7,789 nt of DNA from IMG/VR virus record IMGVR_UViG_2671180864_000008; one strand, written 5' to 3'. Below, piece by piece: positions 194 through 6,915 of this stretch. The stretch is from a virus. Taxonomy: Duplodnaviria; Heunggongvirae; Uroviricota; Caudoviricetes. The position numbers and the translations under genes are program-made. The stretch's first letter is position 1. Each line of letters starts with the position of its first letter. The notes below the pieces were generated by a model. It saw nothing but the letters and a program-made list of their open reading frames with translations, made no database searches and was not told where the DNA came from.

Positions 194-529
194 ATGAAGT
201 GGATTGTGATTGATACAGTTATCCAGCCATCATGCGGAATATCTTTTTCAGTCATATGGAGTAAAATAAAATTAATAATCTGGTATCAATCGGATGCTTT
301 CTTACCTCCTGAAAGTATATTTACACTGACTCACACAGGCATCATGCTCAATAACAAAGTGCTACCTGTAACCATTTACAACGTAGTACCATTCAATAAA
401 ACATTCTGGAATTCAATCAAAAATAGCCAGGAATGCCCTACAAATACAGATAACGTATTGAATGAATGCTTTAATAACCGTTGCACTCTGCAAATATGTC
501 CTTATGGACTAAAACAACAAAGTCCATAA
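194..529 (+). CDS. Hypothetical protein, 111 aa, AT-rich, Cys-containing C-terminus; possible moron/cargo gene
   Basis: ATG start with AAGGAA Shine-Dalgarno 6 nt upstream (184-189). A 336-nt open frame is unexpected by chance in AT-rich DNA. No family recognised. Confidence 0.3.
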
Positions 530-1107: not shown

Positions 1108-1461
1108 CTACCCCAGATGAGTAATCCGAAGTTCATCCATACCACAGGTCCTGGCTATTCTGTTGTACTCCTGAACAAGAGCAAATAATTCTGAATTAGC
1201 AACCATGAACTCATCGCAAACCCTCTGTATAGCATCACTATTCAGAATAATAACGTCTCTTCCCGAAAGACGATCAGGAGTACAGAACAAAACTGTCAAA
1301 CGGCTGAAGGCCTTTGCTCGTGCTGCATTGACTATATCAATACGCTGCCTAAGGATGAAACACCCCGACGCCTCATCAATATTCACTCTACCCACACCAT
1401 ATGAATGATAAATATTTAATGCTGAAAAAACCATTAGACCGTATAACAAACACTCAATCAA
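1108..1461 (-). CDS. Hypothetical protein at the cargo position just downstream of the tRNA cluster; start uncertain
   Basis: Open frame from the track, 117 aa. The track start at 1461 is a TTG; the first in-frame ATG is at 1434 (108 aa) with a weak ribosome-binding site. No family recognised; varied amino-acid composition. Confidence 0.35.
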   Translation of the reverse strand: MIECLLYGLMVFSALNIYHSYGVGRVNIDEASGCFILRQRIDIVNAARAKAFSRLTVLFCTPDRLSGRDVIILNSDAIQRVCDEFMVANSELFALVQEYNRIARTCGMDELRITHLG

Positions 1462-3054: not shown

Positions 3055-3084
3055 ACAAATAAAAAAGCCTTCACTGCGGAAGGC
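3055..3084 (-). terminator. Intrinsic terminator after the 65-aa ORF
   Basis: Minus-strand hairpin GCCTTC-CGCAGT-GAAGGC followed by TTTTTTATTTG. It overlaps the stop codon of ORF 3071..3268. Confidence 0.6.
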
Positions 3085-3268
3085 GTCTGTAACAACCGAA
3101 CTGATAGTCTGCCAGACCCGCCATAACCAGCTGGGTCAGTATTAACTGGCAGCGTTCGCGTGAAAGGTAAGTATTCTGCGCTATCTCCCCGACTGTCGCC
3201 GGTTCGGTAACGCTTAATTCATTAAACACCACTCTGGCGGTTTCTGTCATATCCTGCTGTTTTAGCAT
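3071..3268 (-). CDS. Hypothetical small protein, 65 aa; first ORF of the Q-dependent late transcript
   Basis: ATG start with AAGGAA Shine-Dalgarno 6 nt upstream, followed by the terminator. Hydrophilic, so not a holin. No family recognised. Confidence 0.5.
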   Translation of the reverse strand: MLKQQDMTETARVVFNELSVTEPATVGEIAQNTYLSRERCQLILTQLVMAGLADYQFGCYRRLPQ

Positions 3269-3388
3269 GTCTTTTCCTTTTCCGGTTAACGTGACACACC
3301 AATAACTCTTGTCGAAAAAGCCAGCAAGCTGAAAGACAGGTATTCACCGCCACCAGCGCGTTTACTGTACTGACGCGATTTCAGTCAT

Positions 3389-3412
3389 AAAAAACCCGCT
3401 CGGCGGCGGGTT
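3389..3412 (-). terminator. tR'-like intrinsic terminator downstream of the late promoter
   Basis: Minus-strand GC-rich hairpin (AACCCGC-CGCCGA-GCGGGTT) followed by TTTTTT, about 65 nt downstream of the predicted late-promoter start site. Confidence 0.65.
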
Positions 3413-3444
3413 GTAGAAACTCTTCTAACGTCAGGCATAAAACG

Positions 3445-3487
3445 CCCATCGTTATGACGAATTTACCACAGATTCCGGAAAAATCAA
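3445..3487 (-). promoter_or_regulatory. Lambda PR'-like late promoter with sigma70-dependent pause element (candidate qut site)
   Basis: Minus strand reads TTGATT, 16-nt spacer, TGG-TAAATT (extended -10), then CGTCAT, then AACGATGGG. The TAAATT -10 and the AACGAT-GGG pause element at +1 match my recollection of lambda PR'. Lies directly after the Q stop codon. Confidence 0.7.
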
Positions 3488-3492
3488 CCTTG

Positions 3493-4314
3493 TTACCTAG
3501 TTACCTTTTTTAACTGCCGCTCAGCCCATGCTTCTTCAATATCAAACCGGGTCACCAGCGCATCATAAAATTTCTTAACTGTTTTTTCCCATGACGCGCG
3601 TGTTATCTGGTTTGTCACCTCGCATATAGCATTAAATGCCTCCGTTGATGGTAGTCTTTCATAGCCACGACCACCACAACGCTGGCAGTCTCTGATAACA
3701 GGCATACCACGTTTTACCGACTCTTCACGATGAATGGCGACACCACGCCCACGGCAATCCTTACAGGCGGTGGAAACCTCACCCTTTCCGCCACACTCCG
3801 GACAGGCAACTTTTACCACCTCCCTGACTTTTTTCCATTCTTCCCAGTAAGACGGATACACACCTTTCGTACACTTTGCCCATACCGGCGGCTTACCATC
3901 CGGATACTGGATCTTGTTTGTAAAAACCTCGCTTTCAATAAATTTTTTTCCGTGACAGCAGGGGCACTGTTTTTTGCTCGCCGCGCTACGGGCATAATCT
4001 TCAAACGCATACGAAGCCATAATACGCATCACTGCCGGTTTTATTTCTGCCGGGAGTTTTCTTAACGCCGCCACGCGATCACACCGACTGAGTGCATATT
4101 CTGTCAGCAATTCTGTTGCCCGCTCTCTGTCATTCATACTAATGCCCATTTTCCCAAGGAACGCAGAAACCCCCATCTCAGCCCGATTCTGTGTCATGCC
4201 CTGCGCGGCCATCACATCAGTGATACTCAGCGCATCTTTCGACGTTGAGGCCGATGCATCAGTCAGGCCGGGGGATTTTGGGGAGTAGTATTTCGGTAAA
4301 TCTTCCAGTTTCAT
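3493..4314 (-). CDS. Q: Late-gene antitermination protein Q, lambda-Q family, with expanded zinc-binding region
   Basis: 273 aa. N-terminus (KYYSPKSPGLTD... DVMAAQGM) and C-terminus (YDALVTRF... KKVTR) are colinear with phage lambda Q as recalled. Contains four CxxCxGxG-type motifs where lambda Q has two. Start ATG overlaps the rusA stop (ATGA). Confidence 0.85.
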   Translation of the reverse strand: MKLEDLPKYYSPKSPGLTDASASTSKDALSITDVMAAQGMTQNRAEMGVSAFLGKMGISMNDRERATELLTEYALSRCDRVAALRKLPAEIKPAVMRIMASYAFEDYARSAASKKQCPCCHGKKFIESEVFTNKIQYPDGKPPVWAKCTKGVYPSYWEEWKKVREVVKVACPECGGKGEVSTACKDCRGRGVAIHREESVKRGMPVIRDCQRCGGRGYERLPSTEAFNAICEVTNQITRASWEKTVKKFYDALVTRFDIEEAWAERQLKKVTR

Positions 4315-4691
4315 TTTTTGACCTGCTCTTCATGCATTATGGGGTAAATCTTCACCCCCAGACGTCCACCAGATACTGGCTGACCACGAACGATATTGAT
4401 TTCATCAAACTGCTCATCGTCCATTAGCAACCCCGCATGCGTCAGCGCATCCAGCGGCGCTTTCAGAATATTGTCCAGGTCACGGCGGCGCTTATCCGGT
4501 GGTTCTGCAATAATTTTTATTGCCAACCTTCCGGACAGGCTTAATTTCAGCCGCTGCTGGCGAACAATAAGCGCCACTGCCCGGCGATAACGCTCCCCGG
4601 CTTTTGATACAAAATATGTGCTGCCACGACGACGCCAGTAAGTGTTCACCGTCGGCGGGTAAGGTAAAACAAATTCTATGCGCTCGGTCAT
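4311..4691 (-). CDS. rusA: RusA-type Holliday junction resolvase
   Basis: 126 aa. Matches RusA as recalled, including the acidic motif PDKRRRDLDN and a following DD(E/A)Q. Located in the nin region upstream of Q, as in several lambdoid phages. Confidence 0.85.
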   Translation of the reverse strand: MTERIEFVLPYPPTVNTYWRRRGSTYFVSKAGERYRRAVALIVRQQRLKLSLSGRLAIKIIAEPPDKRRRDLDNILKAPLDALTHAGLLMDDEQFDEINIVRGQPVSGGRLGVKIYPIMHEEQVKK

Positions 4692-5750
4692 TTATGCTTT
4701 CCACTTCAGAACACCCGAATTTCTCGCGTGCATTAAAAAACGAATCAGCAACAACAGCTGACTGCCGTGTTTCTCTTCAAAATCTTTTACTCCGGCATGT
4801 AGTTCGTTACGGCATTTACGGCATAACGGAATAACAAACAAATCATCAGCCTTTGTTCCCATCCCTCCCAGTCCATGACCAATGATGTGATGCGGATCAT
4901 CTGCCTGATTGCCACACGTCATGCATTTCTGCGTTTTTACCCAGCGCGTGTATACAGGCATCTCTTCCCGTTGTGATTTCTGGCGCTGGAGATACTGAGC
5001 CGGTGACTCCGGATCAACGGCAATGCTGACCACCGTCTTTTCCTGTGGTGGGTTCTGTTGCTGGTGGACGTGAGGCAGTAACGCAATATTTTTTGTGCGC
5101 TGCTTCAGTATGCTGGTGGCTGTCTGCTCTCCCGGTATGATGTCGCTTTCACTGTACACAGAGCGAATTTTTTCCGCACGCAACCCCAGCGAACGACGTA
5201 ATACCGCTTCCGGTAGCGCGTCCGCCACCTGATTGCGGACCGCCCACCAGGATAATTCAGCCAGAGATAATTCACGCTCCTGCGTACCGCTTATTGCGTG
5301 ACCGATGACGTCAATCATCCATGCTGACAGGTTTTGATGAGCAAGTTGCTCGAGTGATTCGGATGTCTGGTCACGCAGCTGGTTGTCGCAGTGCCAGCAC
5401 AACACCATTGCGCCGGTACCATAACGGTGAATGACGGTTTCGCTGTGATGATAATCGCCGTGTGGCCACTGGCAGGATTTAATATGGCGCAACAGCCAGT
5501 CAGACAATGCACCAGCACCACCAGCAGCACGAATCACCCGTGCGTTACTGAAAAACGGCAGCAATGTTTTGTCTTCCACCAGCGGCTGGCGAGCGGCAGG
5601 AACGACCCCGGACGGCAGATTACGCATGCTTTTTGGTTCCGGCTCCACCAGTATTCTGCCGTTATGGAATGCTGACATTGATTCACGGCCTGGCTTAACG
5701 ATAACCAGACCGAGTTCCGGTACCAGAACAGGTCGAAGTAATACCCGCAC
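4692..5750 (-). CDS. YdfU-like DUF968 prophage protein with C-terminal HNH-like zinc-binding motif
   Basis: 352 aa, GTG start with GGAGG Shine-Dalgarno 4 nt upstream. N-terminus closely resembles E. coli Qin prophage YdfU as I recall it. C-terminal CMTCG...DPHHIIGHG...CRKCRNELH is an HNH-like arrangement. Confidence 0.7.
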   Translation of the reverse strand: MRVLLRPVLVPELGLVIVKPGRESMSAFHNGRILVEPEPKSMRNLPSGVVPAARQPLVEDKTLLPFFSNARVIRAAGGAGALSDWLLRHIKSCQWPHGDYHHSETVIHRYGTGAMVLCWHCDNQLRDQTSESLEQLAHQNLSAWMIDVIGHAISGTQERELSLAELSWWAVRNQVADALPEAVLRRSLGLRAEKIRSVYSESDIIPGEQTATSILKQRTKNIALLPHVHQQQNPPQEKTVVSIAVDPESPAQYLQRQKSQREEMPVYTRWVKTQKCMTCGNQADDPHHIIGHGLGGMGTKADDLFVIPLCRKCRNELHAGVKDFEEKHGSQLLLLIRFLMHARNSGVLKWKA

Positions 5751-5751
5751 A

Positions 5752-6030
5752 TTACCTCCAGATCCGTTGCTGGAATGTGCGGGACGGACGCGTTGGCCGT
5801 TCGGAGTAAGGGAGCCTGACGGAGATTATCCAGTGACGGTAGTCGAGGCTAAGGGCTTTTTTAACCTCGCATCCGCGCCTGCGGTAACACTGAATGAGCC
5901 ATTCGGCCTGTTCTTCAGTGCATGGGGGATGCTGGTACCAATCAGATTTAAATGCGTGAGAGCGCCGCCCGTGCCTGCTGGCAAAGACGGCTGAATTATC
6001 AGAATTGTGTAGTCTGGAATTTTGCGCCAT
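5752..6030 (-). CDS. Hypothetical nin-region protein, 92 aa
   Basis: ATG start with GGAGAAA Shine-Dalgarno. Stop is directly adjacent to the start of the downstream DUF968 gene. No family recognised. Confidence 0.5.
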   Translation of the reverse strand: MAQNSRLHNSDNSAVFASRHGRRSHAFKSDWYQHPPCTEEQAEWLIQCYRRRGCEVKKALSLDYRHWIISVRLPYSERPTRPSRTFQQRIWR

Positions 6031-6096
6031 CGGCTTTCTCCGGTGGCACAGTGTTACTCAACAGGGGTTCAGCCCTGCGCTGAATTGTAGATGAAT

Positions 6097-6357
6097 TCAC
6101 TCATCTTCAAAAGCAGAAAAACCAGCCTTAATCCCAGCTTCTTTCAGAGACGGCAACGATGTGACAAATTCATTTGCACGCGAAATAAAACCATCCGTCA
6201 CAAGCCCATCCACAAAATGAATTAACGCAGCTCCACTCTTCCTTTGTTGAGACTGTAAACATTTAATACGGCAGTGGCTGACAATAGCGCCATTCTCAAC
6301 GCGCACAGTATAGAGGCCATCTTCACTAAAAATTTCACGTAATTCTTCGATTTTCAT
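6097..6357 (-). CDS. Hypothetical small protein, 86 aa; position is reminiscent of rem in the Qin prophage
   Basis: The track ORF starts at a TTG (6360); the ATG at 6357 has a GGAAGGA Shine-Dalgarno 8 nt upstream. Identity as rem is not verified. Confidence 0.5.
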   Translation of the reverse strand: MKIEELREIFSEDGLYTVRVENGAIVSHCRIKCLQSQQRKSGAALIHFVDGLVTDGFISRANEFVTSLPSLKEAGIKAGFSAFEDE

Positions 6358-6476: not shown

Positions 6477-6507
6477 GAAAATAAAAACAAAAACCCGCCG
6501 AAGCGGG
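6477..6507 (-). terminator. Intrinsic terminator of the hok transcript
   Basis: Minus strand CCCGC-TTCG-GCGGG followed by TTTTTGTTTTTATTTT. Confidence 0.75.
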
Positions 6508-6577
6508 TTAAGTGTGGGTGCATTGAGGATGCCTGACCCATCAGAGGTGGCGAGGGATTTCTCCCCCGCCTGGTCTC

Positions 6578-6733
6578 TTACTCCTCAGGTTCGTAAGCTG
6601 TGAAGACAGCGACCTCCGTCTGGCCGGTTCGAATTCGTACCTCGCAGAGGTCTTTCCTCGTTACCAGTGCCGTCACTATGACGGTTAAACAGATGACGAT
6701 CAGGGCGATTAACATCGCCTTTTGCTGCTTCAT
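6578..6733 (-). CDS. hokD: Hok/Gef-family type I toxin, 51 aa
   Basis: Translation from the internal ATG at 6733 (MKQQKAMLIALIVICLTVIVTALVTRKDLCEVRIRTGQTEVAVFTAYEPEE) matches HokD/RelF as I recall it. AAGGAG Shine-Dalgarno upstream. The track ORF extends in frame to an ATG at 6790 (70 aa). Confidence 0.85.
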   Translation of the reverse strand: MKQQKAMLIALIVICLTVIVTALVTRKDLCEVRIRTGQTEVAVFTAYEPEE

Positions 6734-6885
6734 AGCCTGCTTCTCCTTGCCTTTCGGCACGTAAGAGGCTAACCTAGATTTGCCGTTCATAGATTGAGCC
6801 TCAGATTAATGTTAAGCGTCTTGCCGGACGCGTAATGTTAACTGGGGCTTTTCTCTATCTGCCTTTTGGTGTTCATGCCTGAGAC

Positions 6886-6915
6886 AGATAGCCTCAAGCA
6901 CCCGCTGCAATTCTA
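6886..6915 (-). promoter_or_regulatory. Candidate hok promoter -10 (TAGAAT) and 5' tac-like element of the hok mRNA
   Basis: Minus strand TAGAAT at 6915..6910. The mRNA 5' segment GGGTGCTTGAGG (about 6898..6887) is complementary to the 3' segment CCTCAATGCACCC (about 6531..6519), consistent with the fbi/tac fold-back typical of hok mRNAs. Confidence 0.4.

Follow-up and report, generated by a model that had tools for sequence, protein, structure and literature searches.

Background

Accessory genes that have been acquired independently and reside within the late operons of phages are termed morons, with bor and lom of lambda as examples. In Shiga toxin (Stx) phages, the stxAB cargo is located directly downstream of the tRNA genes ileZ-argN-argO on the Q-dependent late transcript, and in the Stx2a phage F723 stxA begins 90 nucleotides (nt) after this block. 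Two further systems serve for comparison: RIII of T4, a cytoplasmic co-antiholin that is small, soluble and built of two helices, and the Tci cassette of P1. In this paper, a small gene at positions 1108-1386 (minus strand) of a stretch of viral DNA (IMG/VR record IMGVR_UViG_2671180864_000008, Caudoviricetes) is analysed computationally. The whole stretch of 7,789 nt, referred to as the window, represents the nin-to-late region of a lambdoid prophage when read on the minus strand. A preliminary description had reported at 1108-1461 an unrecognised open reading frame (ORF) of about 108-117 amino acids (aa), in the position equivalent to stxA and possibly a gene fragment.

The equivalence of position was borne out: the window and F723, where stxA follows, have the same tRNA block, and Stx phages are homologous to the window only up to a point about 15 nt past the last tRNA. 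Like stxAB, the window gene lies in the slot behind these tRNAs, and it combines a high AT content with many rare codons, as is common in horizontally acquired cargo. It differs in that StxA has 319 aa and the window protein 92 aa, with no sequence or fold relationship between them, and in that stxA is followed by the B subunit, whereas the window gene is followed by a DUF3927/TciB-like ORF. The likeness to morons can be seen in a composition that differs from the flanks, in a presence that varies among otherwise collinear prophages, and in the terminator-like hairpins that bracket homologues. However, no convincing promoter of its own was found, and the position is conserved over very divergent phages, beyond what is expected of a sporadic moron. 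Our preferred reading, held with slightly better than even confidence, is that the gene is real cargo of the stx slot and encodes a late-phase accessory protein of the moron type, neither toxin nor structural, that would act by binding another protein.

Results and discussion

A conserved gene behind the phage tRNAs

Sequence comparisons indicate that 1108-1386 is a real, intact gene under purifying selection. The allele survey comprised 83 full-length copies from IMG/VR and GenBank, representing 18 alleles. The core of the frame, codons 26-117 of the longest version, is intact in all 83 loci, and the sole frame-disrupting allele (L022) is affected in the N-terminal extension. When the window allele was compared with alleles L003 and L096 (synonymous divergence, dS, about 1.1), the ratio of nonsynonymous to synonymous substitution rates (dN/dS) of the core was 0.27 and 0.22, respectively, and it stayed between 0.22 and 0.33 wherever dS was unsaturated. 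The remaining non-mirror frames gave values of about 0.8-1.2 and contained many stops; the mirror antisense frame had a low dN/dS and 6 stops. The frame is kept as well in two other groups of E. coli alleles that are 56-63% identical. Loss of the reading frame across related prophages, which would have spoken against a gene, was thus not seen for the core.

The frame itself is present on the minus (late-transcript) strand as first described: 1108-1461 is free of stops and would give 117 aa from a TTG at 1461 or 108 aa from an ATG at 1434. ORF length by itself is weak evidence for a gene and is only marginally unusual here, given that 59 of 2000 shuffles of the 671-nt region hold a stop-free run of at least 117 codons. 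This marginal length, the weak ribosome-binding site and the fact that PGAP leaves the ORF unannotated in RefSeq genomes would all agree with there being no gene at all, only a frame that is open by chance in AT-rich DNA between genes, or else an RNA or leader without coding function. Such an explanation is extremely unlikely, since length, position and predicted fold persist in homologues down to 20% identity, a dN/dS well below 1 is confined to the coding frame and the stop-bearing mirror antisense frame, and Rfam has no match inside 1108-1461. The missing Rfam match also leaves a non-coding RNA at this place unsupported. The plus-strand ORFs at 1205-1408 and 1401-1517 were set aside, as the PHROG search with them was empty and the antisense frames carry stops in a divergent allele. 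A terminator-like hairpin within the ORF (1272-1254) is weak, appears by eye to be absent from allele L003 (alignment A2), and was taken as chance.

Start site and extent of the product

The true coding sequence is most likely 1108-1386 on the minus strand, with a GTG start and a product of 92 aa (MNIDEASG...ITHLG), a small soluble two-helix hairpin by prediction and a member of the phrog_2873/phrog_4827 family. This start is preferred because of where homologues begin, the lack of an upstream start in one E. coli allele, the neutral evolution of the extension, a drop in GC content, the Shine-Dalgarno (SD) pairing, and a low N-terminal confidence in structure prediction. Homologues of 91-99 aa from Citrobacter, Salmonella, Serratia, Morganella, Yersinia and E. 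coli plasmids align from the residue encoded by GTG 1386, and the few calls that NCBI makes for the gene start with MNIDE (P0010, P0013 and P0019). In the E. coli allele L096, the upstream stretch is open in frame for 29 codons and includes no ATG, GTG or TTG; its GTG is preceded by an AGGAG ribosome-binding site (-6.9 kcal/mol). In-frame stops precede the ATG of homologues by 3 codons in Citrobacter and by 1 codon in the plasmid alleles.

The TTG at 1461 and the ATG at 1434 have essentially no SD pairing (-0.4 and -2.3 kcal/mol), in agreement with the weak start codon and ribosome-binding site noted earlier. The pairing of GTG 1386 (-3.8 kcal/mol) is the best among the four candidate starts in the window and is similar to that of rusA and the methylase gene. 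The in-frame open extension at 1387-1461 (minus strand), 25 codons that hold both the TTG and the ATG, shows neutral substitutions, with a dN/dS of 0.86-0.92 over codons 1-25; its segregating sites are 5 non-synonymous versus 1 synonymous, in addition to the frameshift allele L022. The GC content is 0.44 in the core, 0.31 in the extension and 0.32 in the spacer that precedes it. In an AlphaFold2 (AF2) model of the 117-aa form, residues 9-23 had a predicted local distance difference test score (pLDDT) below 50, and the core fold was retained. The stretch 1387-1461 is most likely an untranslated leader outside the protein.

It is very unlikely that the product is a protein of 108-117 aa, or that the ORF is what remains of a longer gene after disruption. 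The longer form can draw on the extension being open in both the window and allele L003, with the TTG common to the two, and on the use of the 108-aa ATG form by PHROG and by many automatic calls. Against it stand the neutral extension and its frameshift allele, the lack of a start in L096, the stops upstream of homologues, the missing SD pairing and the low pLDDT. The extent given in the preliminary description is therefore revised: the conserved gene is 1108-1386, and the first 25 codons behave as a non-coding leader. Its suggestion of a gene fragment also fails, since family members range from 91 to 110 aa and the relatives show neither a longer nor a frameshifted parent. When frameshifted longer versions were looked for among relatives, no homologue above 110 aa was found apart from frameshifted singletons. 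Existing automatic calls of 108-118 aa carry the wrong start.

Family and prevalence

According to profile comparisons, the protein belongs to a catalogued, uncharacterised family of Enterobacterales phages and prophages (phrog_2873 and phrog_4827). The profile of phrog_2873 is matched over its full length (E=3.8e-70; residues 10-117 aligned with positions 1-108 of 108), that of phrog_4827 more weakly (E=4.2e-5), and distant homologues match both. The 108 positions of the phrog_2873 profile equal the call from ATG 1434, whereas the start proposed here lies 16 codons further in. The two PHROG families resemble the window protein in size and in their common origin from phage late regions, and neither is named or has a structure. 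The label "unrecognised" given to the ORF holds as far as function is concerned, but the family had already been catalogued as phrog_2873.

One profile search covered 1.84 billion representatives and two iterated ones covered 5.8 billion proteins, and these exhaustive searches returned hypothetical proteins only. About 60 relatives were found in protein searches. They include near-identical E. coli copies, the two E. coli allele groups mentioned above, and proteins with 20-43% identity whose sources are the Citrobacter freundii complex, Salmonella, Serratia, Morganella, Yersinia, Xenorhabdus and plasmids of E. coli. A relative from Xylella (E=1.6e-7) sits among head-tail genes, and its homology was treated as uncertain. 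For the window protein and 20 family members, nothing significant came from scanning Pfam, NCBIfam and PADLOC or from searching PDB sequences; for the window protein, the PDB search had no match below E=0.1. In PADLOC the window protein had no match, and the plasmid homologue P0035 weakly matched the coiled-coil part of HEC-06 (E=9e-4). Literature searched for sequence motifs, DUF3927 and Tci gave nothing on the 92-aa protein.

With the 279-nt core as query, the gene was detected in 1314 of 5426 complete E. coli genomes, among them O104:H4, ST131 (EC958 and JJ1886), enterotoxigenic E. coli and animal isolates; 1172 of the 1314 copies are at least 99% identical. Relatives also exist on 27 of 72,556 plasmids. 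RefSeq has no annotation beneath the match in any of 54 sampled near-identical records (match identity at least 98.6%), probably because of the GTG start and the weak ribosome-binding site of this allele. The allele with strong SD pairing is the only one that is sometimes called a "hypothetical protein". Roughly one in four complete E. coli genomes carries the gene unannotated; its family was already catalogued.

Features of the predicted protein

The 92-aa protein has a mass of 10.4 kDa and a pI of 5.7, and contains no hydrophobic segment. A hydrophobic N-terminal segment of the signal-peptide type was not seen in the composition analysis, and no dedicated signal-peptide predictor was run. 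An AF2 model built with a 20-sequence alignment (pLDDT 87.9, pTM 0.73) has antiparallel helices at residues 3-33 and 50-81, a 16-residue loop and a short C-terminal tail. The protein is accordingly predicted to be a soluble, slightly acidic, antiparallel helical hairpin. In the family alignment A4, the conserved columns are R23, N64 and N75, and C9, L12, E66, V71 and A78 are found in at least 90% of members. Peptides of the predicted product include LTVLFCTPDR, DVIILNSDAIQR and VCDEFMVANSELFALVQEYNR.

That the ORF could not be matched to Shiga toxin, ADP-ribosyltransferases, CDT or effector families agrees with the Pfam, NCBIfam and PDB searches, and on their evidence the protein is neither a toxin nor an ADP-ribosyltransferase, and no known effector either. 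In the case of Shiga toxin A or another ribosome-inactivating protein, neither Pfam nor NCBIfam gives a match, no PDB match lies below 0.1, the product has only 92 aa, and the downstream ORF is DUF3927.

Conserved position and what it may indicate

Apart from a few exceptions, homologues occupy a constant place, with Q and the tRNAs ahead of them and the holin and lysozyme genes behind, in E. coli (L096), Citrobacter, Salmonella, Serratia, Morganella and Yersinia. This late-region position was checked in the window and in loci L096, L006, L098, L013, L101 and L106. The exceptions are the plasmid copies and the Xenorhabdus copy, which is in a tail region. In plasmids L009-L012 (about 5347-6276), a tRNA-Thr(TGT) and a 91-aa homologue lie beside a PapB/usher/chaperone fimbrial operon, and this pair looks like a piece captured from the late region of a phage. 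In E. coli, the most frequent layout runs from Q through the tRNAs, the gene, DUF3927 and STnc100 to iraM, the last on the opposite strand.

The holin/lysozyme cassette follows the homologue immediately in Morganella and Yersinia and after a single intervening gene in Serratia and Salmonella, and in Citrobacter and L096 the cassette is likewise only one or two genes away. This neighbourhood raises the idea of a lysis-timing cofactor, a cytoplasmic helical protein that would bind holin or antiholin and adjust when lysis occurs, as the co-antiholin RIII of T4 does. RIII, as described in the literature, resembles the window protein in being small, soluble, helical and phage-encoded, with a two-helix architecture, and several homologues adjoin a holin gene. 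We nevertheless consider such a role unlikely. No homology to RIII is detectable (hhalign probability 0.05%, E=0.8), and the adjoining holins belong to different families (Phage_holin_8, holin_2_1 and class II), a diversity that speaks against one particular holin as partner. In loci of the window type, DUF3927, a small RNA (sRNA) gene and the opposite-strand iraM separate the gene from the lysis genes.

Terminator-like hairpins also stand between homologue and holin. They bracket the homologues of Morganella (L101, 4834-4856 and 5306-5323), Yersinia (L106, 4921-4936 and 5303-5323) and Serratia (L013, 5846-5870 and 6372-6393). The downstream hairpin lies 15-72 nt past the stop in these three and has the common sequence AAGGTCGCC...GGCGGCCTT. 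No promoter-like site was found near the Morganella and Yersinia homologues or directly upstream of the Serratia one.

A second neighbour is an AraC-family gene. Some alleles lie 93-130 nt downstream of a YdeO/GadX-like AraC gene (phrog_1450; L003 164-889, L005 4164-4889 and L096 4142-4870). Three different alleles follow such a gene, L003/L005 and L096 directly and L049/L024 with tRNAs between. The assignment to YdeO rests on an NCBIfam match (E=4e-35) below the cut-off. The AraC genes upstream of other alleles are probably of the Psr/PatE type and would then be relatives of PsrA, PsrB and PatE, regulators from prophages of enterohaemorrhagic E. coli. Both acid resistance and type III secretion of enterohaemorrhagic E. 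coli are under the control of prophage AraC regulators of this kind (PMC10877973). Together with iraM, which neighbours the gene in most loci, and with a weak promoter-like site upstream of the gene, this suggests a regulator of lysogenic conversion, a connector that would modulate the AraC protein or, with iraM, the RpoS/RssB circuit. Such a function is doubtful, however. The gaps of 93-130 nt give no coupling and tRNAs intervene in L049/L024; the AraC gene is absent from most loci and from all non-E. coli contexts examined; iraM lies on the opposite strand and is absent from distant contexts. Additionally, no Pfam family was found at E of 1 or below for the 92-aa protein, which thus matches none of the Pfam models of small regulators, PerC among them.

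A third association is that with the Tci cassette of P1, whose TciB-like (DUF3927) and TerB-like TciA genes have relatives next to the gene in E. coli and Citrobacter prophages. In L096 and Citrobacter the homologue is followed by tciA (TerB-like), tciB (DUF3927) and a holin gene, and this trio is conserved between the two at 38-63% identity; the tciA-tciB pair is complete in L096 and L006. In the window, the DUF3927 ORF is 35 nt downstream. Moreover, tRNA genes lie on the same strand 170-700 nt upstream of homologues in Serratia, Salmonella, one Morganella locus and even the plasmid copies. A defence or exclusion accessory acting with TciA and TciB, or a counter-defence factor tied to the phage tRNAs, could be imagined on these grounds, but is quite unlikely. 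The tciAB module and the gene also occur separately: P1 and phage CharmingMan have tciAB without the gene, and Serratia, Morganella and Yersinia have the gene without tciAB. Nor is the gene TciC of P1, which is an unrelated protein of 35 aa; a tblastn search of 50,697 phage records found no relative in P1. PADLOC gave no hit for the window protein, the codon use of homologues does not track the adjoining tRNAs, and the common location may only reflect a hot spot for cargo.

In a more general proposal, Enterobacterales lambdoid phages would have this family conserved as the first protein-coding gene of their Q-dependent late transcript, with a specific job, either holin-binding lysis timing or the neutralisation of a host defence that is triggered late in infection, perhaps together with the adjacent tRNAs. 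This possibility is put forward only tentatively and appears improbable at present. If it were true, some quarter of complete E. coli genomes, ST131 and O104:H4 included, would hold an unannotated functional copy of the gene at the stx-equivalent locus.

Proposed mode of action as a late accessory protein

A generic late accessory protein that binds a partner was ranked, by inference, above the lysis-timing, AraC/RpoS-modulator and TciAB/tRNA-accessory ideas. Gene and Q share a strand, and terminator-like hairpins follow Q. According to this preferred reading, polymerase modified by Q would start from pR', read through the hairpins at 3412-3393 and 3084-3067 and through the tRNAs, and reach the gene, which would be transcribed mainly as part of the Q-dependent late transcript, jointly with the DUF3927 ORF. 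Translation from the GTG would be weak, in line with the weak ribosome-binding site. The protein would then bind a partner protein through its coiled-coil surface, an action suggested by the lack of enzyme-like or membrane features, and its role may lie in host take-over, in defence or exclusion, or in lysis.

Several observations weigh against this reading. The window allele has a weak ribosome-binding site (-3.8 kcal/mol), and the gene is usually missed by gene callers. The selection signal comes from a handful of divergent alleles, as about 89% of the E. coli copies are at least 99% identical and the conservation of these is due to recent spread, not selection. Among 50,697 deposited phage genomes, a single one (mEp460_ev081, by tblastn) carries the gene, which means that it is mostly seen in resident, possibly defective, prophages. 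Fold searches returned generic coiled coils only (Foldseek E above 0.07), and a helical hairpin says almost nothing about function. With a weak promoter-like site at 1506-1479, expression in the lysogen would also be conceivable.

Genomic context in the window

All features of the window given here are on the minus strand unless noted otherwise. Antiterminator Q (3493-4314; PF03589, Pfam E=1.6e-53) follows the genes for a DUF968 protein (4692-5750) and RusA (4311-4691). Further upstream, the hok toxin ORF with the sok antisense RNA was recognised at 6578-6903 (Rfam, 112 bits), and just downstream of it a weak, sub-threshold isrK-like match was seen at 6488-6569 (25.7 bits, E=0.022).

About 80 nt past the stop of Q, a strong terminator-like hairpin (3393-3412) is a candidate for tR', a role assigned by analogy with the organisation of lambdoid phages, and a second hairpin is found at 3067-3084. 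The interval 3386-3492 is the expected place for pR'/tR' and for a short terminated transcript of the StxS/6S-like type; in Rfam, only a sub-threshold Trp_leader match (E=0.81) was obtained there. A 65-aa winged-helix ORF (3071-3268) and an N6/N4 DNA methyltransferase gene (1862-2920) come next, and the segment 1862-3386 with these two genes is an insertion compared with the commonest layout, in which the tRNAs directly follow Q. The same order of Q, a 64-aa ORF, methylase and homologue is seen in Morganella phages.

The tRNA cluster at 1572-1821 comprises Met/Ile2-CAT, Arg-TCG and Arg-TCT, the equivalents of ileZ-argN-argO, as identified by ARAGORN, Rfam and homologous annotation. The last of them, Arg-tct (1572-1648), ends 110 nt before the TTG at 1461, the distance first reported for the ORF. 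The intervening AT-rich spacer (1462-1571, GC 0.32) holds a weak sigma-70-like match, TTGAAA-16-AAAAAT, running from 1506 to 1479 (9 of 12 positions). It is not above chance, as the total of 7 promoter-like sites, versus 5.2 expected, does not exceed that of shuffles. In other alleles, the spacer with this match is replaced by the AraC-type gene. The gene has a GC content of 0.44 and its leader 0.31, against 0.49-0.56 in flanking genes. Codons AGA, AGG, ATA and CGA amount to 9.7 per 100 in the gene and 1.4-3.3 in its neighbours, and are read by the three upstream tRNAs. A link between tRNAs and codon use is not supported, as homologues beside other tRNAs show no matching codon bias.

Past the gene, the DUF3927/TciB-like ORF (941-1072) encodes a small membrane protein (phrog_1470, E=7.8e-13, positions 23-51 of 54; RefSeq DUF3927 family). 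The next same-strand terminator-like site past the gene is that of STnc100 at 585-564, beyond DUF3927, and the gene and the DUF3927 ORF are probably co-transcribed. This ORF matches the TciB profile in its C-terminal part only and comes without a TerB-like tciA partner; it is probably a deletion derivative of the gene-tciA-tciB trio, remodelled at its N-terminus.

The STnc100 sRNA gene (555-744; Rfam RF02076, 133.6 bits versus a gathering threshold of 47) ends in a terminator at 564-585. STnc100 has been linked to PasD prophage sRNAs in a 2026 preprint (10.64898/2026.05.13.724894). In a related prophage of Shiga toxin-producing E. coli (L005, 3575-6526), five STnc100 copies occur in about 3 kb, four of them clustered between the AraC-ORF cassette and nanS-p. 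In the window, a run of 82 N at 745-826 is flanked by an exact 48-nt duplication (696-743 and 827-874), which is single copy in related loci, where nothing is missing; the gap looks like a scaffolding artefact, and the duplicate is the 5' end of STnc100. A prophage-borne, very AT-rich paralogue of the gene for the RssB anti-adaptor IraM (194-529, plus strand; NF007393, 162 bits versus a cut-off of 121; GC 0.35) accompanies the ORF in most loci and is encoded opposite to the late operon. The best full-length match to the window, AREA_499 from E. coli (97.9%), has the holin and lysozyme genes beyond iraM.

Implications

The slot behind Q and the phage tRNAs is a site of consequential cargo: Shiga toxin, AraC-type regulators of virulence and acid resistance, and sRNAs. 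For this locus, the suspicion of a hidden novel toxin is removed. What the present analysis offers is a corrected model of the gene and notice of a conserved gene in a cargo locus of medical importance; its interest is modest, and what it will yield on function is uncertain, the fold being uninformative. The corrected model offers a clean target for tagging, deletion and interaction work.

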